Positions 1,882 to 33,962 of a stretch of 64,000 bases of DNA are shown here, in pieces. Source of the DNA: a virus (lineage: Duplodnaviria; Heunggongvirae; Uroviricota; Caudoviricetes); IMG/VR virus record IMGVR_UViG_3300046820_000635. One strand, given 5' to 3'. A program made the position numbers and the translations under genes. The number at the start of each line of letters is the position of its first letter. The first letter of the stretch is position 1. The notes under the pieces are model-generated. The model did no database searches, was not told where the DNA came from, and worked only from the letters and a program-made list of their open reading frames with translations.

Positions 1882-1882
1882 A

Positions 1883-2983: not shown

Positions 2984-3002
2984 AATTTATTAAGGAAGAA
3001 AA

Positions 3003-3227: not shown

Positions 3228-3228
3228 T

Positions 3229-3519: not shown

Positions 3520-3529
3520 ATAAAAGATA

Positions 3530-5165: not shown

Positions 5166-5464
5166 AATGCGAAAAGGGCGATTTAGCCAAAATCATTCAC
5201 AGTATACGCCCTACTAACATAGGTAAAACTGTGTTAGTTGAAGAGTATATTGGGCATCTTAAAGAAGGCGAAGTATTTCAGTTTCGTGGTATTTTATGCA
5301 AGGCAATAATTACAGATCATTATTGGTGGATAGAAACTGAATATGGTCTCCAAAATATGCTAGGCGATACGCCAAAAGCATATATTCCAGACACTTGGTT
5401 AGATCCAATACGTCCGGAAAAACAAGTCCAAAAAGAAAAAGTAGATATTGACATCTTTGCCTAA
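5162..5464 (+). CDS. hypothetical protein
   Basis: 100 aa ORF, ATGA-coupled. Confidence 0.35.
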   Translation: MKCEKGDLAKIIHSIRPTNIGKTVLVEEYIGHLKEGEVFQFRGILCKAIITDHYWWIETEYGLQNMLGDTPKAYIPDTWLDPIRPEKQVQKEKVDIDIFA

Positions 5465-5466
5465 AG

Positions 5467-6342: not shown

Positions 6343-6360
6343 TGCTTCGATAGAAAGAAG

Positions 6361-6397
6361 TTCTGGACCCGGCTATCGTATGCCGGCAGGTCCACCA
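6361..6397 (+). ncRNA. ssrA: Putative tmRNA acceptor piece (T-arm-like hairpin plus 3' acceptor strand CAGGUCC-ACCA) of a permuted ssrA gene
   Basis: CAGGTCCACCA (6387-6397) is exactly complementary to GGGCCTG at 6539-6545, giving a G3:U70 pair (Ala identity) plus an ACCA tail. It is preceded by the hairpin CCGGC-tatcgtat-GCCGG. Confidence 0.5.
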
Positions 6398-6538
6398 AAA
6401 GAAAATATATGATTGATAAACCATTACCACCAGCAACAAAATATTGGTGTGACGCATGTGGAACTTTAGAAAGTCCAGATAAACACAAAAATATTTTTTG
6501 TAAGTTGTTTAAATGGTTAGATAGTGTTTTCTTTTGAT

Positions 6539-6750
6539 GGGCCTGAAAGGTTTCGACAGGGCAACAAGTATTGACAAGATCTACTCGGCAATGTAGAAGC
6601 CGTTAGGATTGGGGTCTCCCGGTCGAAGAAGCAAAACAAAGTAAACGCAAACGACTCACAGTTCGCATTAGCTGCCTAAACTCAGCTTAGGGTAAGACAT
6701 ACCTCGTAACAGAAACTCAAGAAGGCTACTTCGGTAGCCTTTCTCTTGAT
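6539..6750 (+). ncRNA. ssrA: Putative tmRNA coding piece: 5' acceptor strand GGGCCUG, UUCGAC D-analog, tag reading frame AND SQF ALAA ending in stop
   Basis: GGGCCTGAAAGGTTTCGACAGGG resembles the E. coli tmRNA 5' end GGGGCUGAUUCUGGAUUCGACGGG. gcaaacgactcacagttcgcattagctgcctaa (6647-6679) encodes ANDSQFALAA*. No downstream T-arm or CCA, so a two-piece arrangement is implied. The hairpin GGCTACttcgGTAGCC at 6725-6740 may end the transcript. Confidence 0.6.
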
Positions 6751-6810
6751 CGTGTAAGAAAACTATTATACAATATCAATGTAACTATATAGGTTACTTC
6801 AGTTTATATT

Positions 6811-7113
6811 ATGATAGGTATTGATATTACTAAAATATCAAGGTTTGAAAAGATGATACATTTTCCAGCCTTTCTTAAAAGATTTAATGTCGAAGGCGAT
6901 GATGCTATCTCTGCGGCTAAGACATGGTCCTGTCTTGAGGCTATAGTAAAAGCAGAAGGTCGGTCATTTGCCTACAATAAAATAAAGATTAGATTTCCTG
7001 CAAATAGTTCTCCGGTAGTAGAAGACCCAGAAGGTATCTTACAAGGATCCTATGCACTGTCACTAAGTCATGACGATGACATATTAGTAGCAGTTGCCCT
7101 GCGGCTCATTTAA
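6811..7113 (+). CDS. Holo-ACP synthase-like 4'-phosphopantetheinyl transferase (AcpS family)
   Basis: MIGIDITKISRFEKMI...FLKRFNVEGDDA...AAKTWSCLEAIVKAEG...LSLSHDDDILVAVALR aligns with the bacterial AcpS motifs GIGTDIVEI...KEAAAKA...SLSHEgdyAiA. 100 aa, shorter than typical AcpS. Confidence 0.55.
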   Translation: MIGIDITKISRFEKMIHFPAFLKRFNVEGDDAISAAKTWSCLEAIVKAEGRSFAYNKIKIRFPANSSPVVEDPEGILQGSYALSLSHDDDILVAVALRLI

Positions 7114-7249
7114 AAAAACTATTGCTGCCATAAAAATATATTAGATAAAATCTATTAAAAACGCTTGGTCTATAGCGTAAATAAAAGTATAATATTAAAC
7201 ATAGAACAACAAGTTCTTAATTTTCATTTCACACACAAAGGAGAAACAG

Positions 7250-7789
7250 ATGAAAACAATCGGCGATAAACTAACAGCATTTGCAGTAACAGGTGTTAAG
7301 CCAGGACAACCAGAAGATGCATATTTCACAATCACAGACCAAAGCTTCGAAGGCAAGTGGAAAGTGATTGTGTTCTATCCAAAAGACTTTACATTTGTAT
7401 GTCCAACAGAAATTGTAGCATACGATAAGTTAAACAGTGACTTTGCTGATCGCGATGCTGTATTGCTAACAGGAAGCACAGACAATGAGTTTTGCAAAAC
7501 AGCTTGGCAAAAAGCACACTCGGATCTACAGAAAATCACTCACACTCAGTTTGCCGATACACAGCGTGGTGAGTTGAGCTTAGTTGAACAGCTAGGCGTG
7601 TTCTACGCACCTGCCGGTGCTGCACTTCGTGCAACATTTATTGTTGACCCACAAAACGTTATCCAGCACGTTACAGTGAACAACCTAGATGTTGGTCGTA
7701 GCCCAGAAGAAACACTGCGTATTCTTGACGCATTGCAAACTGGCGAGCTGTGTGCTTGCAACCGTACTATCGGCGGCGAAACACTTTAA
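7250..7789 (+). CDS. 2-Cys peroxiredoxin (AhpC/Prx1 family)
   Basis: VIVFYPKDFTFVCPTEI peroxidatic Cys motif. C-terminal GELCACN resolving Cys region. 179 aa. Confidence 0.85.
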   Translation: MKTIGDKLTAFAVTGVKPGQPEDAYFTITDQSFEGKWKVIVFYPKDFTFVCPTEIVAYDKLNSDFADRDAVLLTGSTDNEFCKTAWQKAHSDLQKITHTQFADTQRGELSLVEQLGVFYAPAGAALRATFIVDPQNVIQHVTVNNLDVGRSPEETLRILDALQTGELCACNRTIGGETL

Positions 7790-7800
7790 TCGGGACTAAC

Positions 7801-8202
7801 ATGTTGGATTGCTTGATCATCGGAGATAGTATTGCTGTAGGAACTAAAATGTTCCGTCCAGAGTGTGTAGATTATGCACAGGGCGGAATTACCAGTCATG
7901 GTTGGAATAAGAAGTACGGCAATAATAATCTATCAGCTAAATCTGTAATCATTAGTCTAAGCACAAATGATTGGGAAAAAGCAGACACTTACGGTATGTT
8001 GATGAACATACGAACAAAAGTAACAGCTGATAGAGTCTTCTGGGTATTGCCTAATGAAGAATCTAAACCTGATGCTGTTAGGCATGTCCAACGTGTTGCG
8101 GCTCAGTTTAACGACACTGTTATTCCCACCACACGTTGGCAGAAAGATAAAATCCATCCTAGTTGGGCCGGTTACAAAAACATTGCGGAGAAAACAAAAT
8201 GA
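7801..8202 (+). CDS. SGNH/GDSL-type hydrolase
   Basis: MLDCLIIGDSIAVG: GDS block at the N-terminus. 133 aa. Start at 7801 preferred over the track start at 7750. Confidence 0.5.
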   Translation: MLDCLIIGDSIAVGTKMFRPECVDYAQGGITSHGWNKKYGNNNLSAKSVIISLSTNDWEKADTYGMLMNIRTKVTADRVFWVLPNEESKPDAVRHVQRVAAQFNDTVIPTTRWQKDKIHPSWAGYKNIAEKTK

Positions 8203-8717
8203 CAGCATGGGTAGACGCTCTTAAAGAGTCAAGCATTCCTGAGTATGCTAAAGACACAAAACTCAACATTGATGCAGTTATCAAACGTTCAACACTGCCT
8301 GTTGAAGAAGCTGAAGCTGTTGCATTAGCGGCAGCATTTGCAACAGGCAATAGCAAGTTATGGACTTGGGTCCATAGTCAACTTGCAGATCGTAAAGAAG
8401 CAGATGCCGCCTTGACAGCCGCTAGCATTATGGCACAAAACAACGTCTGGTATCCCTACGTTGAAATGGCCGATGATGAACAGCTAAAAGGCTTGCCAGC
8501 ACAGTTGCGCATGAATGCTATCGCAAGCCACGGCGGAACTACAAAGGCTCGTTTCGAAGCATACAGTTTGGCAGCTAGTATTGTGGGCAAGTGTCACTTC
8601 TGTGTTAAGGCACACTACGAAACACTCAAGAAGGAAGGTTACACTGTAGAACAACTTCGTGACATCGGACGTATTGCCGCAGTAATGACCAGTGTTTCTA
8701 GAGTAGTAGCTAACTGA
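8199..8717 (+). CDS. AhpD-like alkylhydroperoxidase / carboxymuconolactone decarboxylase family protein
   Basis: GKCHFCVKAHYETLKKEG CxxC-H motif characteristic of AhpD. ATGA overlap with the upstream gene. GGAG RBS. Confidence 0.7.
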   Translation: MTAWVDALKESSIPEYAKDTKLNIDAVIKRSTLPVEEAEAVALAAAFATGNSKLWTWVHSQLADRKEADAALTAASIMAQNNVWYPYVEMADDEQLKGLPAQLRMNAIASHGGTTKARFEAYSLAASIVGKCHFCVKAHYETLKKEGYTVEQLRDIGRIAAVMTSVSRVVAN

Positions 8718-11730: not shown

Positions 11731-13041
11731 TTGTTCATGAAAATAAATCTTGGTGATCGTATAATAGCCTATTTGGCTTTAATCAGTGGTTTGACAATTT
11801 CGGCAGTGGCCGTTTGGTACTCTGTTGCTGGTTTGGTGTCTATCTTTGCCGCAGCCGCAGTGCCTATCATTGTCATGGGGGTGACCTTAGAAATCAGTAA
11901 ACTTATAGCTACTGTATGGCTGAAGCTAAACTGGAATCGCGCCCCGCAACTTATCAAAATATATCTATGCGCAGCCATCGCAATACTGATGGTTATTACC
12001 AGTATGGGTATCTTTGGCTTCCTTTCAAAAGCACACAGTGATCAAAGCCTGGTGTCAGGTGACGTGCAAAGTAAGATAGCAGTCTACGACGAAAAGATTA
12101 AAATAGCAAAGGAAAATATAGATGCTAACCGCAAGGCGCTTAAACAGATGGATGAAGCTGTGGACCAAGTCATGGCAAGGAGCAGTTCAGAAACGGGTGC
12201 CGACAAAGCTGTTGGGATTAGACGCTCACAACAAAAAGAACGTGCCCGCCTTCAGTCTGACATCCAAGCCGAACAGAAAACTATTACTGCCCTTAGCGAA
12301 GAACGGGCGCCCATTGCCGCTGAGGTTCGAAAGGTTGAAGCAGAAGTTGGTCCGATAAAATATATCGCAGCCTTTGTCTACGGTGATAACCCAGATGCTA
12401 ACGTATTAGAAAAAGCAGTCACATGGGTAATCATTATCATTGTATCAGTGTTTGATCCACTAGCAGTTATTCTATTGTTAGCCAGTCAGTATAGCTTCCA
12501 ATGGTTTAGACAAGCTCGTGAAGAAGAAACCACGGAGGGTGACAGCCCTGAAAAGGAATCTGACGTAGTCAGCACAGCCACTGTCACTGAACAAGCGCCT
12601 ATCATAATAGAAAAGATTGAACCACAGCCAGTTTCTATTGTTGTTCCGGTAATACCTGAGCCTATAGTAGAACCAGATCCGACACCAGAACCAGAACCGA
12701 TAGTAGAATCTGCTCCTGTTGATGATGACATCGAAGAAATCGAATCGGCTCAACCTTCCGAAAAAGAAGCAATGAAAAAGTGGAAGGCTGAAAATCCTAA
12801 CGACTCATTGAAGCATCAAAAGAAGTTGTTAGAAAGAGGAATGATTTCTAGGCTACCCTGGGAAGACTATCTAAAGGCACAGCCAGATGTGTCAGACGCC
12901 GAGGCAGCAGAAGAAGCAGCCAAGTGGGCAATGGAACAACTAGAACGACCAGGTGATTATCTCACATCGTCTGAAAAAGGCTATGTGCAGAACAGTGAAC
13001 AGAACAAGTCTACTCTTTGGCAGAAAATACATAAAACATGA
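11731..13041 (+). CDS. Membrane protein with coiled-coil and Pro/Glu-rich repeats (PEPIVEPDPTPEPEPIVE)
   Basis: 436 aa. About 4 N-terminal TM helices, a central coiled-coil, another TM, then an acidic Pro-rich tail. Confidence 0.5.
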   Translation: MFMKINLGDRIIAYLALISGLTISAVAVWYSVAGLVSIFAAAAVPIIVMGVTLEISKLIATVWLKLNWNRAPQLIKIYLCAAIAILMVITSMGIFGFLSKAHSDQSLVSGDVQSKIAVYDEKIKIAKENIDANRKALKQMDEAVDQVMARSSSETGADKAVGIRRSQQKERARLQSDIQAEQKTITALSEERAPIAAEVRKVEAEVGPIKYIAAFVYGDNPDANVLEKAVTWVIIIIVSVFDPLAVILLLASQYSFQWFRQAREEETTEGDSPEKESDVVSTATVTEQAPIIIEKIEPQPVSIVVPVIPEPIVEPDPTPEPEPIVESAPVDDDIEEIESAQPSEKEAMKKWKAENPNDSLKHQKKLLERGMISRLPWEDYLKAQPDVSDAEAAEEAAKWAMEQLERPGDYLTSSEKGYVQNSEQNKSTLWQKIHKT

Positions 13042-13439
13042 CCGAAAAGATTCTTCTAGTAACTAGTCCAGATGATGTTCAGCAACAAGGGCTAAGAATA
13101 CTTTTTGTAGATCTTAGTGACGATCAAACCCAACTAATATCGCAATCTCTCAATCTCATTGAAGATTTTCCTACAATCATTTCATACATATGGAAAGTTG
13201 GAGAAGATGTCGATTGGTTGATTGATAAAAAATATAAAGCCGATTTAATAATATTCAACGCAGAAAGTATTAATCAAACTGTTGTCGGTTATATGGCCGG
13301 TCAGTATAACGCATATTATTTTGGTAACTTAAAATCGTTATCAGCAGTAAACACATCTGCATTATATTCCCTAGAAGAATGTAAACAGTTGCTCGACAAA
13401 TATATAGAAAAGAAAACTTCTTTTAAACTTACACATTAA
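13038..13439 (+). CDS. hypothetical protein
   Basis: 133 aa, ATGA-coupled. Confidence 0.4.
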   Translation: MTEKILLVTSPDDVQQQGLRILFVDLSDDQTQLISQSLNLIEDFPTIISYIWKVGEDVDWLIDKKYKADLIIFNAESINQTVVGYMAGQYNAYYFGNLKSLSAVNTSALYSLEECKQLLDKYIEKKTSFKLTH

Positions 13440-14157: not shown

Positions 14158-16041
14158 ATGTCTAAGATCATCGGTATTGACCTCGGCACCACCAATTCAT
14201 GCGTGGCTGTTATCGAGAATGGAACTTCCAAAGTTATTGAAAATGCAGAAGGTGCAAGAACAACACCTAGTATCGTCGCCTATGCAAATGACGAAATCCT
14301 AGTTGGTGCATCAGCAAAGCGTCAAGCAGTTACAAATCCCAAAAATACAATCTATGCAGCCAAGCGTTTAATCGGACGTAAGTTTAAAGAACAGGCTGTA
14401 CAAAAAGATCTCGGTCTAATGCCATATGAAATCTACGAAGCAGGCAACGGTGATGCATGGGTTCGTGCTCAAGGCAAAGAACTAGCACCACCACAGATTA
14501 GCGCAGAAGTCTTGCGCAAAATGAAAAAAACAGCAGAGGATTATCTAGGTGAAGAAGTTACTCAAGCGGTTATCACAGTTCCCGCATATTTTAATGACAG
14601 CCAAAGACAGGCTACAAAGGACGCTGGAAAGATCGCAGGCTTGGAAGTACTCCGTATTATTAACGAGCCTACTGCGGCAGCTCTTAGTTATGGCGTTGAT
14701 AAAACTGACAAAGCTGATCGCAAGATTGCTGTTTACGACCTTGGTGGCGGTACATTCGACGTATCAATCATTGAAATCGCGAATGTTGACGGTGACAAAC
14801 AAATCGAAGTACTAAGTACTAACGGCGACACTTTCTTGGGTGGCGAAGACTTTGATCAGCGTATTATGGATTTTCTGGTTGATACATTCAAACAGGAACA
14901 GGGCATTGATCTAACTAAAGATATGCTGGCCCTACAGCGGTTAAAAGAAGCCGCTGAAAAGGCTAAGATTGAGCTGTCTAGTTCTGCACAAACAGACGTT
15001 AACTTGCCCTACATTACAGCAGATGCAACAGGTCCTAAGCACATGAATGTCAAGTTGACTCGTGCTAAACTAGAAAGTCTTGTTGACGAACTAATCCAAC
15101 GTAGTATTGCACCATGTAAAACTGCTATGCAAGATGCTGGCGTAACCGCTAGCGATATTGACGAAGTTATTCTTGTTGGCGGTATGACACGTATGCCAAA
15201 GGTACAAGAAGCTGTTGAGAAGTTGTTTGGTAAGGCTCCTCGAAAGGATGTCAATCCGGACGAAGCAGTTGCTGTCGGCGCTGCTATTCAAGGTGCTGTG
15301 CTAGGTGGTGATCGTAAAGACGTTCTATTGCTAGACGTTACTCCATTGAGCCTAGGTATCGAAACACTAGGCGGTGTAATGAGCAAGTTGATTCAAAAGA
15401 ATACGACTATTCCGACTAAGTCTAGTCAAACATTCTCAACAGCTGAAGACAATCAACCTGCCGTAACTATCAAGGCCTACCAAGGTGAACGTGAACTATG
15501 CCAACACAACAAACTGTTAGGAGAGTTTAATCTCGAAGGTATTGCACCAGCTCGTCGTGGACAACCGCAGATCGAAGTTACCTTTGATATCGATGCTAAT
15601 GGTATCATGCATATCTCTGCCAAAGACAAGAGTACAGGTAAAGAAAATAAAATCACTATCAAGTCTAACAGCGGATTGAGTGACGATGAAGTTCAACGTA
15701 TGATTCGAGAAGCAGAAGAAAATGCCGAAGCCGATAAAAAGGCACGTACTCTTATTGAGACACGAAATCAAGCAGAAGCTATGGTGCATGAACTCAAGAA
15801 AGATACAGAAGATCTAAAAGACGAGCTTACTGACACACAACGTAGCGATGCCGAAGCTGCTATCCAAGCAGTGGCAGACGCAGGCAATGACGTAGATGCT
15901 ATCAAATCAGCAATCGAGAAACTGACTACAGTAGCGGTTTCTTTTGCACAGAAAAAACAGCTTAAAGAATCTGGTACAACACCGGACCAAGCTGCACAGG
16001 ATGATGTAGTTGATGCTACTTTTACTGAGAGCAAAAACTAA
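14158..16041 (+). CDS. dnaK: Hsp70 chaperone (DnaK-like)
   Basis: [26 protein letters not shown], complete 627 aa. AAGGAG RBS. Confidence 0.9.
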
Positions 16042-16072
16042 TCATAAAGAGTACCGTAATGGACTCTATTGA

Positions 16073-16090
16073 TTCTTACTTTATAAGGAG
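16073..16090 (+). promoter_or_regulatory. Conserved 18-nt element TCTTACTTTATAAGGAGA upstream of hsp20
   Basis: Identical to the element at 14134-14150 upstream of dnaK. Confidence 0.4.
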
Positions 16091-16096
16091 AAACAT

Positions 16097-16528
16097 ATGA
16101 ATCAACTAGCAAGAATAGACGCTTTAAACAGAGCATTGATTGGATTCGACACCATGTTCGATCAAATGGAACGCCGTTTCGCAAACAGCGTATCAAATAA
16201 CTATCCACCTCATAATATCATCAAGGTCGGAGAAAATAACTACAAGATTCAGTTGGCAGTAACAGGATTTAACAAATCCGAAGTTAGCGTAACTGTAGAA
16301 AACAATGTGCTGATTGTCAAGGGCGAAAGTATGACAACAGAGTGGCCTTCCGAAGCTTACCTCTATCGTGGTCTTGCTACCCGCGATTTTGTCAAAGAGT
16401 TTCCTCTTGCCGAACATATCGAAGTAGTTGGAGCACAAATCGAAAACGGCCTTTTGATCATTAGTTTGATTCGCAACATTCCAGAATCTGCGAAGCCTAA
16501 AGTGATTGACATCGTCGAGATTAAGTAA
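16097..16528 (+). CDS. Small heat shock protein (Hsp20/alpha-crystallin, IbpA-like)
   Basis: NYKIQLAVTGFNKSEVSVTVENNVLIVKGE alpha-crystallin domain. 143 aa. Confidence 0.8.
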   Translation: MNQLARIDALNRALIGFDTMFDQMERRFANSVSNNYPPHNIIKVGENNYKIQLAVTGFNKSEVSVTVENNVLIVKGESMTTEWPSEAYLYRGLATRDFVKEFPLAEHIEVVGAQIENGLLIISLIRNIPESAKPKVIDIVEIK

Positions 16529-16577
16529 TATAATAAAGGGGAAGGAAACTTCCCCTGTAACATAACCCGGAGAAAAC

Positions 16578-16880
16578 ATGGCCGTAGACACACAAATTGA
16601 CGAGAAGGTATCGATCAAAGTAGAACCACCAAAGATGTGGAAAGTAGTATTTTTAAACGATGACCATACTCCGATGGAATTTGTAATCGAACTGCTGGTA
16701 AGTATCTTTAGACATACTGAAAGCAAAGCTAAAGATCTTACTTTAGAAATTCATAATTCTGGTAGTGCAGTCGCGGGCATTTACAGTCACGAGATTGCAG
16801 AACAACGTGGGATGGAAGCAACACATCTCTCAAGAGCAAATGGATTCCCACTTCAGGTCCAACTAGAACAAGATTCCTAA
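16578..16880 (+). CDS. clpS: ClpS-like ATP-dependent Clp protease adaptor
   Basis: PKMWKVVFLNDDHTPMEFVIELLVSIFRHTESKA matches the ClpS core (YKVILLNDDYTPMEFV...). Confidence 0.8.
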   Translation: MAVDTQIDEKVSIKVEPPKMWKVVFLNDDHTPMEFVIELLVSIFRHTESKAKDLTLEIHNSGSAVAGIYSHEIAEQRGMEATHLSRANGFPLQVQLEQDS

Positions 16881-16881
16881 C

Positions 16882-17148
16882 ATGATTCATGGCGAGGACT
16901 TTAAATTTTTAAAGTATAAAAATGTAGGCACTCGCCAATTTTCTTACTGGCTAACATTTCTTGATACAAGACCTAGCAATAGGCGATATGGTAAACGATC
17001 AAGAAAAGAATTAATAAACTTTTGGTCTTATAGTTTGGGCAAACTAGGAGATCGTTGGGAATATAGCGCACCCGGTAATGGAGAGTTTATTATCAAAATC
17101 CATCAAGAAAGTGATATCACAATAATGCTCTTGAAGTATCACAGATAG
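16882..17148 (+). CDS. hypothetical protein
   Basis: 88 aa ORF. Confidence 0.35.
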   Translation: MIHGEDFKFLKYKNVGTRQFSYWLTFLDTRPSNRRYGKRSRKELINFWSYSLGKLGDRWEYSAPGNGEFIIKIHQESDITIMLLKYHR

Positions 17149-17162
17149 TAAATAATCACACT

Positions 17163-17708
17163 ATGAGTCTAAAAGATATTACCAAAGACCTCCACCATGA
17201 GGCAGAAACAACAAAGTTCGCTAAGATGCTGCTTAGTGGCAAGATTGGCAAAGAAGACTACAGAAACTATCTGTATAACTTAATGGCAGTATACGATCCA
17301 ATCGAATGGTACTGTCAGCGTCAAGGATTCCTTGTCGCAATGCCAGACTTACCTCGTCTAAAATCAATCTATGCAGATTTCATGGAGCTAGACGACGGAT
17401 CTTACTGTTACCTAACTCCAGCAACACTTGAATACCAAGCATACTTACACAAACTAGGTAACGATGAACAACGTAAACACCTTGTTAAAGCGCATCTATA
17501 TTGCCGCCATATGGGCGACTTATTCGGTGGCCAAATCATTAAGAAGCAGGTAGCACATATTTCAAGCGGTAAGTTCTACGACTTTGAAAATGCTGATGCT
17601 ATGAAGATGGCTATTCGCGTAACGCTTACCGACGACTTAGGTGACGAAGCTCGTGTAGCATTTGAATACGCTATTAAGATGATGCGAGATTTGTATAATG
17701 GAGAGTAA
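17163..17708 (+). CDS. Heme oxygenase (HO-1 family)
   Basis: LKDITKDLHHEAETTKF...YRNYLYNLMAVYDPIEW and AHLYCRHMGDLFGGQIIKK match the proximal-His and GDLSGGQ helix motifs of heme oxygenase. Confidence 0.7.
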   Translation: MSLKDITKDLHHEAETTKFAKMLLSGKIGKEDYRNYLYNLMAVYDPIEWYCQRQGFLVAMPDLPRLKSIYADFMELDDGSYCYLTPATLEYQAYLHKLGNDEQRKHLVKAHLYCRHMGDLFGGQIIKKQVAHISSGKFYDFENADAMKMAIRVTLTDDLGDEARVAFEYAIKMMRDLYNGE

Positions 17709-18381
17709 AGTTTGGGACTCACTGATTGCTGTACAACAGTACTTTGAAGAGTCATTTAATAATACAGGAAAGGAAGTCTATGAGACGGGTATGGATCGCT
17801 TTAACAGCCCTGGTTGGGTTAACCGTGTTTGGACCAGTGGGTCTTATCGTCGTGCTCACGTTGATGTTGTGGATGCTAGGAAAACAAAAGGACTGTGGAT
17901 GATGCACTGCTGTGTGTTTCCTCATACACACAATCCGGCACCAATCTTTGGTTTTGATGTTATTGCAGGCAAGAATAAAATCACAGGTTGTTTTTATGAC
18001 TACAGCCCTGCAGGCGATCCCGAACACCCTATGCTTGACTGGTTCGCAGACGAAGCACAACAACTAGAATGGGTTAAGACACGCAAGTTACCCGAGTGGG
18101 CTGAACGTATCTTTAGTACCAGTATGGTAGCTGCTGCTAATGTTAGTGACGAGACCGAACTTGCACAGATTGTAGACATGGCCTATCGTGGAATCGATAC
18201 TTACCTGCAATCAGTAGGCAATACCAACAATACAGCACATGACACAACAGACGCACAAAACTTCTATTGCGAAAATCAAAAGATGAATCCGCATACACCA
18301 AAAGTTATGGTCAGTCTTGGACTTAGCGAAGAAGACGTAAAGGTCTTTATTCAGGATTGTCTGTTTCCTGAAATCAAATAA
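17698..18381 (+). CDS. Ferredoxin-dependent bilin reductase (PebS/PcyA/PcyX family)
   Basis: RRAHVDVVDARKTKGLWMMHCCVFPHTHNPAPIFGFDVIAG matches the FDBR core (R.AH.D......L...H.V.FP......P.FG.D...). Overlaps and follows the heme oxygenase gene. Confidence 0.7.
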   Translation: MESKVWDSLIAVQQYFEESFNNTGKEVYETGMDRFNSPGWVNRVWTSGSYRRAHVDVVDARKTKGLWMMHCCVFPHTHNPAPIFGFDVIAGKNKITGCFYDYSPAGDPEHPMLDWFADEAQQLEWVKTRKLPEWAERIFSTSMVAAANVSDETELAQIVDMAYRGIDTYLQSVGNTNNTAHDTTDAQNFYCENQKMNPHTPKVMVSLGLSEEDVKVFIQDCLFPEIK

Positions 18382-18389
18382 ATACTTGC

Positions 18390-18671
18390 ATGAGAGCAAG
18401 TGATTTTGATAGAATAAAGAAAGACAAGTTTAAACCTAAACTGGTCGCAAGATGGTGGGGTGGTTACAACGGTAACAGTATCCCGCCTGATGTAAAGCCT
18501 CTATTTCAAAAACACGTTAAAACAGCCGCTAACGGCAAACAATACATTAATCAATATGACGATCGTTGGTATTATAGTGTATTCAAAAACTACCCACATA
18601 TTACAGACTGGGACAGTTTCTTTGACGTAATCAAACCCTACTTTACCGTACAAAGAAAACAAGATATTTAA
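18390..18671 (+). CDS. hypothetical protein
   Basis: 93 aa ORF. Confidence 0.35.
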   Translation: MRASDFDRIKKDKFKPKLVARWWGGYNGNSIPPDVKPLFQKHVKTAANGKQYINQYDDRWYYSVFKNYPHITDWDSFFDVIKPYFTVQRKQDI

Positions 18672-18755
18672 GGTTTTCTTGCTCTAGATTAAACTCAGCG
18701 TTTAATTGCTGCCCCCGTGTATCTAAATACTATACCGATTACCGGGAGCGAATCA

Positions 18756-19247
18756 ATGAAAAGAACAATAGTAGGATTGGGGATTACTCTGGCCGTATAC
18801 ACGACATACGCAGCAGAAATCCAACATAGCTTTAATAGTCCGTCATTTAGTGGTGTAGGATATAGCAGCCATGTTCTTACACTTAAACAACTAGAAGATC
18901 AGCAGAAAGATAAAAACAAAGCTGCGATCGACGCATTAAAAGCTGCTGCTGAAAGAGAAGCAGCAAATACTCCACAGGCTAGATTTAAAGCCAGCATGGA
19001 AACAAGAGTCTACAGCGAGTTAGCTAAACGTATTAGCGATAGCCTATTCGGTAGCACAACTACAGCACCTACCTGCAATGGCGGTGGATCTAGTTCTTCT
19101 AGCAGCCCTTGCGCTGCTATTGAGTTAGTAGGACAAAACATTTCTTGGTGGATTACAGGATCTAACATTATTGTTAGAATTCAGGATGCTAATGATCCTA
19201 ACACATACACAGAAATGACCATGCCATATGCGGCATTTAGCATCTAA
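18756..19247 (+). CDS. CsgF-like curli assembly component (secreted)
   Basis: Signal peptide MKRTIVGLGITLAVYTTYA. Mature N-terminus EIQHSFNSPSFSGVGYSSHVLTLKQ parallels CsgF [29 protein letters not shown]. GGGAG RBS. Confidence 0.6.
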   Translation: MKRTIVGLGITLAVYTTYAAEIQHSFNSPSFSGVGYSSHVLTLKQLEDQQKDKNKAAIDALKAAAEREAANTPQARFKASMETRVYSELAKRISDSLFGSTTTAPTCNGGGSSSSSSPCAAIELVGQNISWWITGSNIIVRIQDANDPNTYTEMTMPYAAFSI

Positions 19248-19258
19248 GGATTAGAAAC

Positions 19259-20215
19259 ATGACAAAAACAATTATATCCTTAGCAATCATTGCATTATTG
19301 AGCGGATGTGCAACAAGTTCAGCTATACATGAAAAAGTCACAGGCAAACAATTTGATGAGCCAGTAGTTGAACAGAGTACATACTTAAAGAAAGATACAA
19401 ACAAGTTAAAGCCGCCAGCAACTGGTCCCATTCCTATTGCCGTATACGGATTTCAGGACAAGACTGGACAACGTAAGAGCATTCCGAACATTGCTAGTTT
19501 GAGTTCGGCAGTAACACAAGGTGCAGACAGCTATTTGATTAAAGCATTACAAGATGTAGGTGACCAGCGTTGGTTTACTGTTCTTGAAAGAGTTGGTTTA
19601 GAAAACCTAATCAAAGAGCGTCAAATGATTCGACAGATGCGTGAGCAGTATCAAGGTAAGGATGCAAAGCCTTTACCTCCTATGATGTTTGCTGGCGTAA
19701 TAGTTGAAGGTGGTATTATAGGCTATGATTCAAATACTCTAACTGGTGGTAGCGGAGTTAGATTTTTAGGAGTCGGAGCAACTACACAATACCAAAGCGA
19801 TACTGTAACTGTTAATCTACGCACAGTTAGCGTAAGCACAGGAGAAGTATTAACCAGTGTTACTATCACAAAAACTGTGTTAAGTTACATGGACAAGTTC
19901 GGAGTTCTGAAGTTTGTTGAGCAAGGTACACAAAGTATCGAAGCAGAAACAGGCGGCAGTATCAACGAAAGTATCAACAAAGCTGTGAATCTAGCAGTTC
20001 AAGCAGCCGTTGTTGGTACTATACATGAAGGTGCAAGGAAAGGGCATTGGAACTTTAAGGAGGAGAAAAAAGATGAGTTGGTTCAATCACAAACCTCGCC
20101 GCAAAGAGCCGCCGAAACTGTACCCTCACAACCACAGCCCAGCGACAAAGAAAGCGCTGGATCAGGCAAAGCAGTTGAGTCCGACAAAACAAACGGACAA
20201 AAAGAAGTAAAATAA
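19259..20215 (+). CDS. CsgG-like outer-membrane lipoprotein secretion channel
   Basis: Lipobox LLSGCATSS. IAVYGFQDKTGQ...RWFTVLERVGLENLIKERQMIRQ...AGVIVEGGIIGYDSNTLTGGSGVRFLGVGATTQYQSDTVTVNLRTVSVSTGEVLTSV aligns along the whole E. coli CsgG sequence. Confidence 0.85.
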   Translation: MTKTIISLAIIALLSGCATSSAIHEKVTGKQFDEPVVEQSTYLKKDTNKLKPPATGPIPIAVYGFQDKTGQRKSIPNIASLSSAVTQGADSYLIKALQDVGDQRWFTVLERVGLENLIKERQMIRQMREQYQGKDAKPLPPMMFAGVIVEGGIIGYDSNTLTGGSGVRFLGVGATTQYQSDTVTVNLRTVSVSTGEVLTSVTITKTVLSYMDKFGVLKFVEQGTQSIEAETGGSINESINKAVNLAVQAAVVGTIHEGARKGHWNFKEEKKDELVQSQTSPQRAAETVPSQPQPSDKESAGSGKAVESDKTNGQKEVK

Positions 20216-20228
20216 CAGGGAGCTCACT

Positions 20229-21065
20229 GTGTTACAAGCCGCAGTGAAAATAAAAATGAAATTAGGACAAACAAATACAATTAAAAATATAGTCCTGGTA
20301 ACGGCATTGGCAATGGCTAGCATCACAAATGCTCAGTCAACAGTTGCTACAGGCCCAAACAAGGTCTATATCGAACAAGTCGGTAATAGCAATACAGTTA
20401 CCATTCAGCAAGTTGGCGGAACTAACGACGTTGGCGGAACAGCCGTTACAGCATCATCAGTTGCAGCCAATGGAGTAACCACATTAACTCCAACAGCACC
20501 TAGTTCTTCGAACTATGCTACTATCACAGGTAGTTCGAATACTGTTACTCTAAATCAAACAGGTAACGGCAACAGTGCGCAGTACAATATTCAAGGTAAC
20601 GACAATGTCTATACCAGCAACGTTACAGGACACGGTAATCAAACTAGGTTAACTGTGGGCGATGTTAACAATGCTAGTAATCTACGTAATGTTATTACAG
20701 AAACAATCGTTGGCGACACAAACTTGATTATACAAGATATTGTTGGTAGTGATATTACCAGTATTACAGGTATTACAGGCAACTCAAACCAAGTTACAAA
20801 AAGTTTGTTAAGCTCAAACGGTACTAGCGACATTAGTATTTCTGGTAATAGTAACGTTCTAAACATTCAGCAAACAGACGCTGCTGGTGCAAACGGGCAT
20901 TATCTAAAACAAGTTATAGCAGGTGACTACAACAGCATCACTACTCAACAGCAAGGTACTAATGATACCACTGTTGATATCCGTGCTACAGGTAGCCACA
21001 ATACTATTACTGTAAGAACTAGTAGTTCAGCTATCGTTAATCCTGCAACAGCAATCGTGAGGTAA
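20229..21065 (+). CDS. Curlin-repeat secreted protein (CsgA/CsgB-like amyloid subunit candidate)
   Basis: Signal peptide, then degenerate repeats of the S-x5-Q-x-G-x-G-N-x-A-x3-Q type: NSNTVTIQQVGGTNDVGG, SSNTVTLNQTGNGNSAQYNIQG, GHGNQTRLTVGDVNNASNLRNVI and others. Confidence 0.6.
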   Translation: MLQAAVKIKMKLGQTNTIKNIVLVTALAMASITNAQSTVATGPNKVYIEQVGNSNTVTIQQVGGTNDVGGTAVTASSVAANGVTTLTPTAPSSSNYATITGSSNTVTLNQTGNGNSAQYNIQGNDNVYTSNVTGHGNQTRLTVGDVNNASNLRNVITETIVGDTNLIIQDIVGSDITSITGITGNSNQVTKSLLSSNGTSDISISGNSNVLNIQQTDAAGANGHYLKQVIAGDYNSITTQQQGTNDTTVDIRATGSHNTITVRTSSSAIVNPATAIVR

Positions 21066-21068
21066 GAC

Positions 21069-22172
21069 ATGCGAGTCCTTTTGTTAGCTCTACTGCTAAC
21101 ATTTTCTGTGGCTTCAAATGCCAATGGCAATATTGGCAAAGTCACAGAAAATAAAGGAAATGCCTGTGAAGTTGAAAGGAACAAGAAGAAGATGTCCGGC
21201 ATTAAAGGTGCCGACATTGAATCTTTGGATACCTATATAACACAGGCATGCGTAAGCACCTTGACATTTACCGATGATACCAAAGTCAAAGTTACAGAAA
21301 ACAGCCGTCTGCTTATTGACGATTTTGTTTTCGATCCTAAGAAAAGCGATGCAGGCAAGCTCGCTCTCAAAGTGGGTATGGGAACCGTTAGATACGCTAG
21401 CGGGCAGATTGCTAAGAACAATCCACAACAAGTCGCAATAAAAACCCCTTCGGCAACTATCGCAGTTCGCGGTACTGATTTCTCTATGACTGTGGACGAA
21501 GCAGGACAGAGTCTTGTGGTCCTACTGCCCAGCTGCAAAGAAGAAAAAGACATGAAGCAGTATGAGCTGGAAGAGAATCGCTGTAAAGTTGGTAAGATTG
21601 AAGTTAGTACAGATGCGGGTAAGGTAGTGTTGGATCAAGCATTTCATGCTACCTATGTTACCAGTACAAACATAATGCCGACTCCGGCTACAGTTATCAA
21701 CACCATCGAGGCCAAAATCAACAACAACCTAATATTGGTTAAGCCTATGGAAGTATCTACTGCTATCCGTGAACATGCCAAGACTAAGCAGGATCGAGAA
21801 CTAGAGGAAATCGAAGCAGAAGCTTCACGCAGACTTGCCGCAAGAGTTAAAGAAGCAGCAGAAGAAATAGAAAGAGCTAGACTGTTGGCACTAGCAGTTG
21901 CCTTGGGTACGGCTAGCTGTAATGCCAGTACCAGTATCTGTGTAAACTGGGAAAACACCGATGCCAGCACTATTCAAACCAAAGGCAAAGGCACTGCTTT
22001 TCGTACCAACGAGGATCACTATGCTGAAGTTAAGACACAGGGCTATAGTTCAAATACAAGCATTACAATAATACACAACGATGCATCGGCAACAGAAGTT
22101 ATCGGTGACGGAAGCGCAGGCGGAAATATGATTTATATCAAACAGAATGCAGGAGTGCTAAGAAGAAGATGA
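21069..22172 (+). CDS. Secreted FecR-domain protein with C-terminal coiled coil
   Basis: Signal peptide MRVLLLALLLTFSVASNA. IAIKTPSATIAVRGTDFSMTV matches the FecR beta-motif. Confidence 0.5.
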   Translation: MRVLLLALLLTFSVASNANGNIGKVTENKGNACEVERNKKKMSGIKGADIESLDTYITQACVSTLTFTDDTKVKVTENSRLLIDDFVFDPKKSDAGKLALKVGMGTVRYASGQIAKNNPQQVAIKTPSATIAVRGTDFSMTVDEAGQSLVVLLPSCKEEKDMKQYELEENRCKVGKIEVSTDAGKVVLDQAFHATYVTSTNIMPTPATVINTIEAKINNNLILVKPMEVSTAIREHAKTKQDRELEEIEAEASRRLAARVKEAAEEIERARLLALAVALGTASCNASTSICVNWENTDASTIQTKGKGTAFRTNEDHYAEVKTQGYSSNTSITIIHNDASATEVIGDGSAGGNMIYIKQNAGVLRRR

Positions 22173-24064
22173 TGACACGCATATTACAGTTCTTGGCATT
22201 GTTGGTACTTTCTGTCAGTGCGCAGAGTCAAACATATTACAATGCTATTGCTACTGCCTATGTTACAACAACTATCAGTCAGCATGTTGTATTTGATGCA
22301 AATATGCAAGCAGGTGGAACATTTACCTTTAGTGTATTAGCACACAATGGCGGTGGACGTGCCGGGCAAAGCGACACAGCCAACGTAAAGATAGAATTCT
22401 ACAACAGTAGTGGCGGATTAGTGTCGCAGGTAAACACATCGCACTCTGCTAACTTACCAAACCCTAACGCTGTGTGTGGTAATCCTTGTATCGATACAAG
22501 CGTTCCTTGGACAACACTGACTGTTAGTAAAACACTATCTGCGGCGGAAGCTGGAACAGTGGCCTATGCCCGAGTTAGTATGTATGGTATTGATGGAAGC
22601 TATTGGGCAGGTGATTACGGTCCGTGGTATCGTGCTCCTACTCTGCAACTTAACAGTGGTGGCAACTTATTGTATAACCCAGAGTTTGGTCCTTACAACA
22701 ACATAACAGCACAGGGTTGGACCAGTAATCCAGGGTTCGGTGCTTGTCAAGGTGCATGGGGTGGTAGTAATGCCTGTATCGTTAACAGCGATGGTGTACC
22801 TGGTTCTAGTACAGTTGGTTTAGTTGCTAACCAGAATGGTGGAGGCCCTAGTGCAACAGGTGGTACAACTAGCGGTACTGCTGGCGGATATAATAACACT
22901 ATGACAGTAACCAACGCAGGTACCGGTGCAACAGCTGGTGGTCCTCCCCCACCAGCCCCAACAGTTATTACCGGGTCATCACCGACAGTTTATATAACAA
23001 ACTACTATCCCACAAGTAATAACAGTCCTGTAAGTGAAGGAGCATCCAATGCTTTTGATGGTAATCCGAATACCAAATATCTAAACTTCGATAAACTAAA
23101 TGCAGGTGTAACTATTAAATTAAATTCGGGTCGAGTAGTTACAGGATTTAAACTTACTACAGCTAACGATTTTAGTGGGAGAGATCCTACTAGTTATAAA
23201 CTCTACGGAAGTAATAACGGAAGTACCTGGACTCTGATTCAGGAAGGTGCATTATCACTTAGCGAAAATCGACTTACAGTTAGTTCTGAGATTACTGTAA
23301 CTAATACTAATGCCTATGTTTACTATTATATTTTCTTTCCAACTACAAAAGCAGGTACAGGTTGTGGATTAGATTGTGATAGTATGCAGATTGCCGAAAT
23401 CACATACATCTATGATGCTAATAATACAACAACATCTACAGCTACAGGTTCATCAGTTTCTAACCCAGGAAGTTTATGCTGCGGAGGAAATGCTTCTTCG
23501 TTTAATGCTAATACTTCTAACTCTGCAAAAGTTTTATTATTCACTAATAGAACAACAGCAGATAGTCAAGTTTATATTGAACAAATCGGTATTGGTAATA
23601 ATATAGAAGTATTTCAATCCGGCACTAGACAAAACTATGCAAAATATTACGGCAATGGATCAAACAATGATGTAACTATTATACAGACAGGAAATGCCTC
23701 TACTTCTGTGAACTATACAGATTTGTCAATAACAGGCAATTCAAATAATGTTAATGTTACACAACAAAGCAGCGGAGGCGGCAAAGGAGCGTTTGTTACT
23801 ATATCTAATAACTCGAATATTGTTAATGTTACGCAAAAAGATTCTGGAAGCCATTATTTAGATCTAGCACTATCCGGTGGAAATAAAACTGTAGGTGTAC
23901 TACAACAGGGATCCGCTAGTCATATGGCTACTATTAATCTAAGTGGAAATCCTACCAGTTTAAATCTAACTCAAAGCGGAAGTACACAAAACTTTTATTC
24001 TATTACTCACAACTGTGCAACAGCAGGTGGGTGTGCTCCTATTACAGTGACACAAGGCAACTAA
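22169..24064 (+). CDS. Large secreted protein: N-terminal beta-rich domain, Gly/Thr/Pro linker, F5/8-type-C (discoidin-like) domain, C-terminal curlin-like repeats
   Basis: Signal peptide. NAFDGNPNTKYLNFDK...TGFKLTTANDFSGRDPTSYKLYGSNNGSTW discoidin-like. C-terminal repeats SQVYIEQIGIGNNIEVFQSG, SNNDVTIIQTGNAS, NSNNVNVTQQSSGGGKGA, NKTVGVLQQGSASHMA. Confidence 0.55.
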   Translation: MMTRILQFLALLVLSVSAQSQTYYNAIATAYVTTTISQHVVFDANMQAGGTFTFSVLAHNGGGRAGQSDTANVKIEFYNSSGGLVSQVNTSHSANLPNPNAVCGNPCIDTSVPWTTLTVSKTLSAAEAGTVAYARVSMYGIDGSYWAGDYGPWYRAPTLQLNSGGNLLYNPEFGPYNNITAQGWTSNPGFGACQGAWGGSNACIVNSDGVPGSSTVGLVANQNGGGPSATGGTTSGTAGGYNNTMTVTNAGTGATAGGPPPPAPTVITGSSPTVYITNYYPTSNNSPVSEGASNAFDGNPNTKYLNFDKLNAGVTIKLNSGRVVTGFKLTTANDFSGRDPTSYKLYGSNNGSTWTLIQEGALSLSENRLTVSSEITVTNTNAYVYYYIFFPTTKAGTGCGLDCDSMQIAEITYIYDANNTTTSTATGSSVSNPGSLCCGGNASSFNANTSNSAKVLLFTNRTTADSQVYIEQIGIGNNIEVFQSGTRQNYAKYYGNGSNNDVTIIQTGNASTSVNYTDLSITGNSNNVNVTQQSSGGGKGAFVTISNNSNIVNVTQKDSGSHYLDLALSGGNKTVGVLQQGSASHMATINLSGNPTSLNLTQSGSTQNFYSITHNCATAGGCAPITVTQGN

Positions 24065-24080
24065 TACAGCAAATAAATAG

Positions 24081-26135
24081 TTGATGCAAATCAAACTAAA
24101 ATCTTTGCTGTTAAGCCCGTGGACAGCAGTAATCACACTGGCACTAGTACTAGGTATCCGCGTTAGCGATCCAGCGTTTGTAGAAAGCGTTAGACTACGT
24201 TATTTTGACACACTAATCACTGCTAAAGAACCTACACAAAATAATATTGTTACGGTTAACATTGACGAAGAATCTTTAGATAAACTAGGACAATGGCCTT
24301 TACCGAGGGCAGAGTATGCTAAAATTATTAAAGACTTGTATGATAGGGGCGCTGGCCTTGTTGTTCTCAACGTGCTTATGGCTGAGCCTGATCGCACTGG
24401 TGGTGACTCAGCTCTTGCCCAGGCTCTTTCTCAATATCCAGTAGTTCTAGGTAGTGTACCTAGCGACAAAACAAAAAACATTCCACGCAATCCGGGCAGT
24501 GCTGTTCTGGGACCAGAGTTTCTTGATCAAATCATAACCTATCCCGGAATCATTGCCAATATACCTCCTCTAGAAAAATCAGCAGCAGGGATTGGTATTG
24601 TAAATACTCTACCAGAAGTTGATGGTGTAAATCGCCGATTACCTTTGATTGCCGGTGTTGACGGCAAACTATACCCAAGCATAGCTATGGAGACACTGCG
24701 AGTAGCAGCAGGCGATTCAACCTTTCAAGTAAAGCTCAACGAGAATGGCGTTGAGAAAATGCGTATTCCAAAGTTTGGCCCTATTACTACGGACAACTTT
24801 GGACGCATCTGGGTCGATTGGAGCCAGGAGAATCAAAGTGTAAGTCTAACTAACTTGCCCAAAGATCTCGCTGGCGCTATCGTTATTGTTGGACCTACCG
24901 CAGCAGGGGTGAGCAATCCAGTACCGACTGCTAAGGGTGCAGTATGGCCGCATGATGTTCAAGCCGCAGTTATTGGTACAATGGTCAATGGCGTTGTTAT
25001 ACAGAGGCCTGACTATGCAGACGGTCTAGAAATACTTGCTATTGCATTAGCAGGATTAATTTTATTATTTTTAACAAGGTGGACTTATGTTGGATTGGGT
25101 GCAACTATTGTTATTGCTGTGGGCGGCTACGTTGCTAGTAGCTACGCTTTCAGTAACTTTCTATTCTTATTTGATACTACTGCCTTTACAGCTGGCACAG
25201 TCTTGGTCGCTTTGCATGCCTATGGTGTCAAGTTTGTAAGTGAGTTTTTACAGAAGCAGGCAATCAAGAAACAGTTTGCTGGCTACTGCTCAAAAGAAGT
25301 AGTAGAGATGCTACAGAAAGATCCAGACTTAATCAAGCGTGGTGTGCGTAAAGACGTGTCAGTTATGTTTAGTGACTTGCGTGGATTTACTCCTATTGGT
25401 GAACATTACGGTGATGATGTAGGCGGACTAGGCAAGTACATGAACGGCTACATGGATGCTATTAGTCGTCCTATTATGGACAACAAGGGTATGGTTATCA
25501 AGTATGTAGGTGATGCGTCAATGCACATCCATGGAGCTCCTATTGAAGATCCTAACCACGCTAGAACTATTGTTGCTGTTGGCCTACAGATGTTAGATGC
25601 TGTTGATGCCTATACAAAAGAAATGGAAGCACAAGGATTACCACCAGCCGCAATGGGTTGGGGTTGTAACACAGGTATTGGCTTCATTGGCGAGATGGGT
25701 TCAACTGATAGGCACAGCTATGACATCTTAGGCGACATGGTTTCAACTGCGGCTCGCTTAGAAGCACGTTGCAAGGCTTATGGCGTACTATGTATTATTG
25801 GTGCTGAAACATACAACCGCACTAAAGATGATTTCTTCTACTTGTGTATCGATAACTTACAACCCAAGGGCAAGTCAGTAGCAGACTTAATATATACAGC
25901 ACTACGCCCCAACGGTGAGGACTGGAGTAAAGACCTAGTTAAGTACAACGAAATGCAAGCCCTGTACAAGGCTAAGAAGTTTGACGAAGCTGCTGCTATG
26001 TGCTCTAAGATGAAAGGTACATTCGGTGGACAAATGGACAAGTATTATAAGATTTGGATTGAACGTTGTGACTTCATGAAACAGCAAGATCTAGGCCCAG
26101 ATTGGCAGGGAGAGTTTATAGCGAATGAAAAATAA
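24081..26135 (+). CDS. CHASE2 sensor domain - multi-TM - class III adenylate/guanylate cyclase
   Basis: N-terminal TM plus an extracytoplasmic CHASE2-like region, about 4 TM helices, then VSVMFSDLRGFTPIGEHY...GDASMHIHGAP (cyclase metal-binding Asp and transition-state residues). Confidence 0.75.
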   Translation: MMQIKLKSLLLSPWTAVITLALVLGIRVSDPAFVESVRLRYFDTLITAKEPTQNNIVTVNIDEESLDKLGQWPLPRAEYAKIIKDLYDRGAGLVVLNVLMAEPDRTGGDSALAQALSQYPVVLGSVPSDKTKNIPRNPGSAVLGPEFLDQIITYPGIIANIPPLEKSAAGIGIVNTLPEVDGVNRRLPLIAGVDGKLYPSIAMETLRVAAGDSTFQVKLNENGVEKMRIPKFGPITTDNFGRIWVDWSQENQSVSLTNLPKDLAGAIVIVGPTAAGVSNPVPTAKGAVWPHDVQAAVIGTMVNGVVIQRPDYADGLEILAIALAGLILLFLTRWTYVGLGATIVIAVGGYVASSYAFSNFLFLFDTTAFTAGTVLVALHAYGVKFVSEFLQKQAIKKQFAGYCSKEVVEMLQKDPDLIKRGVRKDVSVMFSDLRGFTPIGEHYGDDVGGLGKYMNGYMDAISRPIMDNKGMVIKYVGDASMHIHGAPIEDPNHARTIVAVGLQMLDAVDAYTKEMEAQGLPPAAMGWGCNTGIGFIGEMGSTDRHSYDILGDMVSTAARLEARCKAYGVLCIIGAETYNRTKDDFFYLCIDNLQPKGKSVADLIYTALRPNGEDWSKDLVKYNEMQALYKAKKFDEAAAMCSKMKGTFGGQMDKYYKIWIERCDFMKQQDLGPDWQGEFIANEK

Positions 26136-33933: not shown

Positions 33934-33962
33934 TTGACAAACTAAAGGTATGGTTGTACAAT
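33934..33962 (+). promoter_or_regulatory. sigma70-type promoter TTGACA-N17-TACAAT driving the CUA-anticodon tRNA
   Basis: Consensus -35, 17-nt spacer, TACAAT ending 9 nt before the tRNA. Confidence 0.65.

Follow-up and report, generated by a model that had tools for sequence, protein, structure and literature searches.

Phages are known to carry genes for bilin synthesis, and the closest counterpart to the locus treated here is the hemO-pcyX cassette of marine phages, with the heme oxygenase PhiHemO and the bilin reductase PcyX_EBK42635 (Ledermann et al. 2016, 2018, as presented in PMC11480375 and PMC13446030). PcyX is reported to be confined to viruses (PMC13446030), and adjacent ho1 and pcyX-like genes have been found in the large freshwater phages TP6_1, BML_S_1, CB_1 and CB_2 (bioRxiv 10.1101/2020.02.13.942896). 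Here we analyse a pair of this kind, in which a heme oxygenase gene (hemO) overlaps a gene for a ferredoxin-dependent bilin reductase (FDBR; pcyX), in a stretch of 64,000 nucleotides (nt) from the IMG/VR virus record IMGVR_UViG_3300046820_000635 (Caudoviricetes). We refer to this whole stretch as the window. The pair is a further member of the known phage hemO-pcyX cassette, from a distinct sub-clade, and does not constitute a new enzyme class. The explanation we favour for the locus as a whole, with a probability of about 0.8, is that hemO-pcyX is an auxiliary metabolic cassette of the phage, most plausibly with a role in the heme and iron economy of a probably non-photosynthetic host. That such pairs occur in phages had been stated in a preliminary description of the window, and it agrees with the detailed account of the marine hemO-pcyX(-alaS) cassette in PMC11480375.

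The likeness to the marine cassette extends to the gene order, with a short heme oxygenase gene on the 5' side, to an Asp/His/Asp/Pro signature in the reductase, to the FDBR fold and to the virus-only distribution. The characterised PcyX is however about 49% identical to that of the window, which belongs to a separate sub-clade, sister to the group of EBK42635 and Pelagibacter phage Mosig; phages with contigs of up to about 350-400 kb, and not T4-like pelagimyophages, carry this sub-clade. Mosig (EXVC030M, MT647606) also has hemO upstream of pcyX, with an overlap of 14 nt, but it is a 141-kb Kyanoviridae phage without nucleotide similarity to the window, and its pair does not stand behind DnaK, Hsp20 and ClpS; it is flanked by a ferrochelatase gene and four genes for 2-oxoglutarate (2OG)-Fe(II) oxygenases on one side and by neck genes on the other. 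The large freshwater phages resemble the window in having ho1 and a pcyX-like gene side by side, in genomes of 159-527 kb with assigned proteobacterial hosts. The CB_2 enzyme differs in that it lacks the PcyX Asp and is a true PcyA that makes phycocyanobilin (PCB), with alaS alongside (PMC11480375), whereas the window enzyme has the Asp. A three-gene hemO-pcyA/X-alaS cassette is described in the same paper; an aminotransferase-family AlaS was not found with Pfam among the large open reading frames (ORFs) of the window, which is part of a genome. The heme oxygenases and FDBRs encoded by the cyanophages P-SSM2, P-SSM4 and P-HM1 use the same substrates, and PebS also makes phycoerythrobilin (PEB), but PebS is another FDBR lineage, PcyA carries Glu at the key position and yields PCB, and the two genes do not form an overlapping pair in the cyanophage records examined.

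The reductase matches the Pfam family PF05996 (Fe_bilin_red) with an E value of 5.2e-15 and 56.2 bits, against a cutoff of 31. When all PDB sequences were searched with phmmer, the best match was PcyX_EBK42635 (5OWG), over the whole length and at E 6.3e-69, while the best PcyA match reached 8.9e-14 and PebS, PebA, PebB and HY2 gave no match at E <=1. The window protein is 48.7% identical to 5OWG and 51% identical to the PcyX of Mosig. An AlphaFold2 (AF2) model, with a predicted local distance difference test score (pLDDT) of 78, retrieved 5OWG first in Foldseek, followed by PcyA, PebA, PebB and HY2, and PebS at an E value of about 1e-3 (6e-4 or weaker). The residues that distinguish the FDBR classes are Glu76/His88/Asp105/Asp220 in PcyA and Asp72/His86/Asp103/Pro216 in PcyX EBK42635, while PebS has Asn88 at the position of the PcyA His88, together with Asp105/Asp206 (PMC13446030, Table 2 for PcyA and PcyX). 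The window protein has Asp56/His70/Asp87/Pro198 in the signature columns of EBK42635, and these four are invariant in 67 unique relatives; Glu stands in the Asp56 column in Synechocystis PcyA and in three cyanophage PcyAs. In a neighbour-joining tree, the kind of phylogenetic placement that the preliminary description had proposed, the window clade is the sister of Mosig and 5OWG, with the PcyA sequences outside. Judged by its sequence and its predicted structure, the window reductase is a PcyX in a distinct sub-clade. The earlier reading had left the class open between PebS, PcyA and PcyX, and only the last of these is upheld by the 5OWG match, the residues and the tree.

Both other assignments were considered and rejected. 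For PcyA the position of Glu76 is occupied by Asp56, and the similarity is about 1e-13 as against 6.3e-69 for PcyX; for PebS no sequence match was obtained at E <=1, His70 is found where PebS has Asn, and the structural match in Foldseek is weak.

The Glu-to-Asp change has been tied to the formation of PEB rather than PCB (PMC13446030; PMC11480375). The PcyX class, together with the Asp/His/Asp/Pro signature, leads us to predict, by analogy, that the window enzyme converts biliverdin to PEB via 15,16-dihydrobiliverdin, and PCB is not expected since the PcyA Glu76 position is Asp here. When 1.84 billion cluster representatives were scanned in full, 357 FDBR-like clusters were recovered at E <=1e-3; those nearest to the window PcyX have Asp/His/Asp/Pro, and below about 35% identity most are of the Glu type.

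The first gene of the pair matches PF01126 (Heme_oxygenase) at E 9.9e-23 and 81.5 bits (cutoff 23), over profile positions 6-165 of 204, and phmmer against the PDB returned HO-2, HO-1 and Synechocystis HO-1 at about 1e-11. In human HO-1 the reference sites are the proximal His25 and the distal-helix motif G139-D140-x-x-G143-G144. His11 of the window protein aligns with the proximal heme-ligand His of HO-2 and HO-1, and its distal-helix stretch G118-D119-L-F-G122-G123 aligns with GDLSGG; 65 unique relatives show no change at His11, G118, D119, G122 or G123. The AF2 model has eight helices and a pLDDT of 88.7, and Foldseek pairs it with HO-2, HO-1, Synechocystis HO-1 and HmuO at query-normalised template modelling (TM) scores of 0.81-0.85. 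As the core superposes on HO-1, HO-2 and HmuO, the shortness of the protein is a matter of trimmed loops and a missing C-terminal tail and not of a truncated core; the cyanophage heme oxygenases aligned here have about 230 amino acids (aa) and a C-terminal extension. By sequence and model, then, the first gene is a complete and compact canonical HO-1-type heme oxygenase, and by analogy its predicted products from heme are biliverdin IX-alpha, Fe2+ and CO.

Searches of IMG/VR gave 335 related loci, of which 80 were taken, and in all 91 loci were examined. Most of them come from large phages of an uncultured lineage, whose contigs reach about 350-400 kb, among them IMG/VR contigs of 345, 353, 356 and 400 kb. 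In every one of the 91 loci hemO lies immediately 5' of pcyX and overlaps it. The overlap is 8-26 nt in most loci and 47-62 nt in a few, the latter with the furthest-upstream start codon taken. A ClpS gene precedes hemO in 84 of the 91, and of the distinct loci that extend far enough on the 5' side, 62/63 have Hsp20 and 59/63 have DnaK. The lineage conserves a block of the order DnaK-Hsp20-ClpS-hemO-pcyX, behind which curli genes often lie. An identical PcyX protein is encoded on a 7-kb contig from the Joint Genome Institute (JGI) with the same neighbours, and the PcyX of the IMG/VR record IMGVR_UViG_3300046779_000619 is 99% identical. A search of 5.8 billion proteins found 5571 relatives of PcyX, the top 120 of which are 75-87% identical and in some cases encoded on contigs of 332-359 kb, and 714 relatives of the window type of heme oxygenase.

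Pairwise Nei-Gojobori comparisons with relatives gave ratios of nonsynonymous to synonymous substitution rates (dN/dS) of 0.03-0.08 in hemO and 0.02-0.14 in pcyX. By this sequence measure both genes are under strong purifying selection, and the low ratios, together with catalytic residues that stay invariant while heme oxygenase identity falls to about 30%, argue that both are functional. The pathway from heme through biliverdin to a phycobilin, as first suggested, is in accord with the protein families, the predicted folds and this selection, and with the catalytic residues; loss of the catalytic Asp and His of the reductase, which would have spoken against it, is seen neither in the window nor in the 67 relatives.

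The hemO slot is in itself a mosaic. Two main types of heme oxygenase, about 40% identical (35-46%), are found beside pcyX genes that are 67-92% identical, and the pairwise identities of the two proteins are correlated with a Spearman coefficient of 0.18. One locus (L013) has 83% identity to the window in PcyX and 41% in the heme oxygenase, while another (L034) has 74% and 93%; the Mosig enzyme is 46% identical to the other type and about 30-31% to the window type. Heme oxygenases this different beside similar pcyX genes point to replacement of hemO by recombination, with the catalytic residues kept. In one locus (L089, IMGVR_UViG_3300027679_000366) the best tblastn matches to Hsp20, ClpS and hemO are on the minus strand, at about 18000-19200 and some 8 kb 3' of pcyX, and an intact hemO ORF is still present directly 5' of pcyX; this arrangement could reflect an inverted duplication, or else an artefact of the assembly.

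The two frames had been described as overlapping, and both are found exactly so on the plus strand, with an overlap of 11 nt (Table 1). The pcyX ATG at 17698 lies inside the 3' end of hemO, whose stop codon TAA occupies 17706-17708, and the conservation of the overlap suggests that HemO and PcyX are translationally coupled. Upstream, the ClpS gene is preceded by a candidate sigma-70 promoter that agrees with the consensus in every position, and of 64 distinct upstream regions from related loci, 45 have a promoter of at least 11/12, always with a 17-nt spacer, at the ClpS slot or before Hsp20. The window has 13 sigma-70 promoters of at least 11/12, all on the plus strand and none on the minus strand, with a spacer of 17 nt in twelve and 16 nt in one, against an expectation of about 0.4 per strand that we estimate for random sequence. 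This excess suggests that the region is transcribed by the sigma-70 RNA polymerase of a host with canonical -35/-10 promoters. The signals further suggest that ClpS, a small 88-aa ORF, hemO and pcyX form one transcription unit from the promoter at 16506-16534, so that ClpS would probably be co-transcribed with the pair. The terminator candidate after pcyX is a hairpin with a 7-bp stem and three GC pairs that overlaps the start of the next ORF. The ClpS protein aligns with those of E. coli and Agrobacterium and retains the NDD[H/Y]TPMEFV motif and the His. The 88-aa ORF between ClpS and hemO has no match in Pfam, PHROG or the PDB; it occupies this slot in just 13 of the 91 loci and is about 30-33% identical beyond its closest relatives.

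The phage context of the pair is given by a tRNA array, the IMG/VR contigs and PHROG matches. A search of positions 16000-22000 against 50,697 phage records (INPHARED) gave no nucleotide match, and among isolates Mosig, a phage of SAR11, alone has a close PcyX. The window DnaK is 72-73% identical to gammaproteobacterial sequences, the window has genes for CsgG and CsgF, outer-membrane components of curli, and no photosynthesis or phycobiliprotein gene was found among its scanned ORFs. These sequence indications make a non-photosynthetic Gram-negative bacterium the most likely host. Of the two kinds of host that had been offered at first, a cyanobacterium is thus unsupported, and the curli genes, the DnaK, the SAR11-phage relative and the lack of photosynthesis genes favour a non-photosynthetic one.

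In such a host, the sigma-70 RNA polymerase would transcribe the pair together with ClpS, probably early in infection. HemO would open host heme to biliverdin IX-alpha with release of Fe2+ and CO, and PcyX would carry out a ferredoxin-dependent four-electron reduction of biliverdin to 15,16-dihydrobiliverdin and on to PEB. The cassette would in this way clear free heme, supply iron to phage iron enzymes such as the small subunit of ribonucleotide reductase (RNR) and the superoxide dismutase (SOD) of the Fe/Mn family, and give a reduced bilin. The neighbourhood of RNR, SOD, glutaredoxin, peroxiredoxin, an AhpD-like protein, DnaK, Hsp20 and ClpS favours heme and iron management over the supply of a light-harvesting antenna, which is unlikely.

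Several points weigh against this explanation. The physiological role, most plausibly heme and iron management during the takeover of the host, is read from the neighbourhood only, and the role of the cassette in phages of heterotrophs has been called enigmatic (PMC11480375). No credible 2Fe-2S, 4Fe-4S or rubredoxin motif was found in the six frames of the 64 kb, and the electrons would thus have to come from a ferredoxin encoded beyond the window or by the host. A search of 185,579 species genomes turned up a relative on just two short contigs of metagenome-assembled genomes (MAGs), labelled Polynucleobacter and Arcticimaribacter. These may be binning errors, and that there are only two of them agrees with the published restriction of PcyX to viruses. 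The window PcyX is just about 49% identical to the sole characterised PcyX, and its product is accordingly a prediction. In other PcyX-like clusters, at 35-46% identity, the Asp is replaced by Ser, Asn, Gln or Lys. The position is evolutionarily labile, and the product may not be set by this residue alone. Many of the representatives P0245-P0303 have patterns such as SHDP and NHDP at the signature columns, and to our knowledge the bilin products of such variants are uncharacterised.

A different view of the same neighbourhood is that the pair is the downstream half of an early operon for proteolysis and heme salvage, and not a pigment pathway. The phage ClpS would redirect the host ClpAP to host proteins, hemoproteins included, HemO would destroy the toxic heme that is released and free its iron for the iron enzymes of the phage, and PcyX would remove biliverdin and pull the reaction forward, with a reduced bilin as the result. 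This rests on the linkage to ClpS in 84/91 loci behind a sigma-70 promoter and on the chaperone, SOD, peroxiredoxin, glutaredoxin and RNR neighbours, and we regard it as possible but doubtful. That the bilin, PEB or possibly PCB, serves as the chromophore of a phytochrome, a GAF protein or a bilin-biosynthesis-associated globin (BBAG) of the host or the phage seems improbable to us. PEB lacks the 15,16 double bond and hence does not undergo the photoisomerisation of phytochromes, and it is PEB that the Asp signature predicts. The freshwater phage PcyA of a similar cassette does make PCB that assembles into a functional phytochrome, and BBAGs have been discussed as partners (PMC11480375). In the window, however, Pfam found no phytochrome, GAF, PAS, globin, phycobilisome, lyase or ferrochelatase domain in about 67 ORFs, and the 88-aa ORF and a 93-aa ORF that flanks pcyX, the latter searched in Pfam, PHROGs and the PDB, have no detectable homologues to serve as such a partner. 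A signalling protein with CHASE2 and adenylate/guanylate cyclase domains is encoded 6 kb downstream of the pair, but CHASE2 is not a bilin-binding domain.

A supply of PEB to host phycobiliproteins, by which light harvesting would be kept up during infection of a cyanobacterium, has in its favour that PEB is a chromophore of cyanobacterial antennae, that cyanophages carry ho1, pebS and pcyA, and that the marine cassette was originally interpreted in a similar way (summarised in PMC11480375). It is nevertheless highly improbable here, as the window has no DNA similarity to any cyanophage, cyanophage FDBRs and heme oxygenases are just 23-33% identical to those of the window, and the genomes of the lineage are about 350 kb as against 176-252 kb in the records of the matched cyanomyophages. 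The host indications given above, with a SAR11 phage as the closest isolate, curli outer-membrane genes, a proteobacteria-like DnaK and a lack of photosynthesis, phycobiliprotein and lyase genes among the ORFs scanned, speak against it as well. The mosaic of two heme oxygenase types and the variable small flanking ORFs could, finally, be taken to mean that hemO and pcyX are drifting remnants of recombination without a selected function. This is effectively refuted by the data on selection and conservation: dN/dS is 0.02-0.14 across both genes, the catalytic residues are kept at a heme oxygenase identity of down to about 30%, order and overlap are retained in 91/91 loci, and metagenomic homologues are counted in thousands.

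The preliminary description placed the pair between a chaperone block and a curli locus, and Pfam agrees, with DnaK, Hsp20 and ClpS on the 5' side and CsgF and CsgG on the 3' side. The curli-type block extends over 18717-26135 on the plus strand, where CsgF, CsgG and a curlin-repeat-like protein are followed by FecR-domain, F5/8 type C and CHASE2-cyclase proteins. CsgG is found within 5 kb downstream of pcyX in 31 of 43 relatives with enough flank, and L007 and some others are without the block. Curli genes in phages have previously been described from pelagimyophages and the OM43 phage Melnitz, and pelagimyophages related to Mosig also bear csgF and csgG according to the literature. In many relatives the 93-aa ORF after pcyX is replaced by one of about 480 aa, which matches no Pfam family and which the window lacks. 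The relatives L004 (5335-5565) and L007 (5882-6115) have a ribosomal protein S21 gene just 5' of the exonuclease-DnaK block; at this position the window has an unrelated ORF of 133 aa (13038-13439).

Farther from the pair, a run of redox and nucleotide genes occupies 82-8717 on the plus strand. It begins with an RNR large-subunit gene that covers profile positions 326-522 only, and which may be split or have begun before the window. A NAD-salvage pair on the plus strand, at 38932-39948 and 41396-42796, consists of a NadR-like cytidylyltransferase-like plus Nudix protein and a nicotinamide phosphoribosyltransferase, and between them an ORF on the minus strand (39931-40677) has a NUMOD3 motif and is probably a homing endonuclease. 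The tRNA array, at 59999-63524 (plus strand), comprises about 20 genes with a wide range of specificities, one of them with an odd anticodon loop (62682-62768), and has a raised GC content of 0.45-0.47. A lone tRNA with a CUA anticodon, of the amber-suppressor type and labelled 'Pyl' by ARAGORN, is encoded at 33972-34046 on the plus strand, with a near-consensus promoter (33934-33962) just 5' of it. TAG is the stop codon of only one of the 57 genes in the window, the 88-aa ORF before hemO, where an in-frame TAA follows. Recoding of TAG was rejected for the window, as no plus-strand gene gains meaningful length with TAG translated; late genes elsewhere in the genome could be recoded.

Table 1. 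Positions of the hemO-pcyX pair and of other features in the window.
Feature	Position	Strand	Remark
RNR large subunit, C-terminal part	82-735	+	
Fe/Mn-family superoxide dismutase	732-1280	+	
Class II aldolase	1261-1881	+	
RNR small subunit	1862-2983	+	
Glutaredoxin	3003-3227	+	
DUF454	within 82-8717	+	
GIY-YIG endonuclease	5467-6342	+	
AhpC/TSA peroxiredoxin	7250-7789	+	
CMD/AhpD-like protein	8163-8717	+	
Exonuclease			upstream of DnaK; part of the exonuclease-DnaK block
DnaK	14158-16041		upstream of hemO; Pfam
Hsp20	16097-16528		upstream of hemO; Pfam
Candidate sigma-70 promoter	16506-16534	+	TTGACA-17 nt-TATAAT, 12/12 consensus
ClpS (ClpAP N-degron adaptor)	16578-16880	+	Pfam ClpS, E 4.2e-28
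88-aa ORF, variable insert	16882-17148	+	gap between ClpS and hemO; no family match
hemO, heme oxygenase, 181 aa	17163-17708	+	Pfam PF01126
hemO/pcyX overlap, 11 nt	17698-17708	+	ATGGAGAGTAA; read from the sequence
pcyX, ferredoxin-dependent bilin reductase, 227 aa	17698-18381	+	Pfam PF05996
Weak terminator-like hairpin (candidate)	18383-18402	+	consensus scan only
CsgF	18717-19247		downstream of pcyX; Pfam
CsgG	19259-20215		downstream of pcyX; Pfam
Curlin-repeat-like ORF, 278 aa	20229-21065		downstream of pcyX
CHASE2-adenylate/guanylate cyclase, 684 aa	24081-26135	+	6 kb 3' of the pair
Sigma-70 promoter starts	8723, 10348, 16506, 27154, 30574, 33934, 38494, 40724, 42171, 42811, 44285, 59225, 59309	+	

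Aquatic viromes contain the hemO-pcyX cassette in abundance. What is newest in the present locus is its conserved context, linked to ClpS and apparently driven by sigma-70 promoters, among very large phages of an uncultured lineage. The PcyX of the window, with only 49% identity to the characterised enzyme, is a candidate for testing whether the Asp signature dictates the formation of PEB, and the surroundings of the pair, which point to proteostasis and to the economy of heme and iron, give a testable setting for the long-standing question of what role these genes have.

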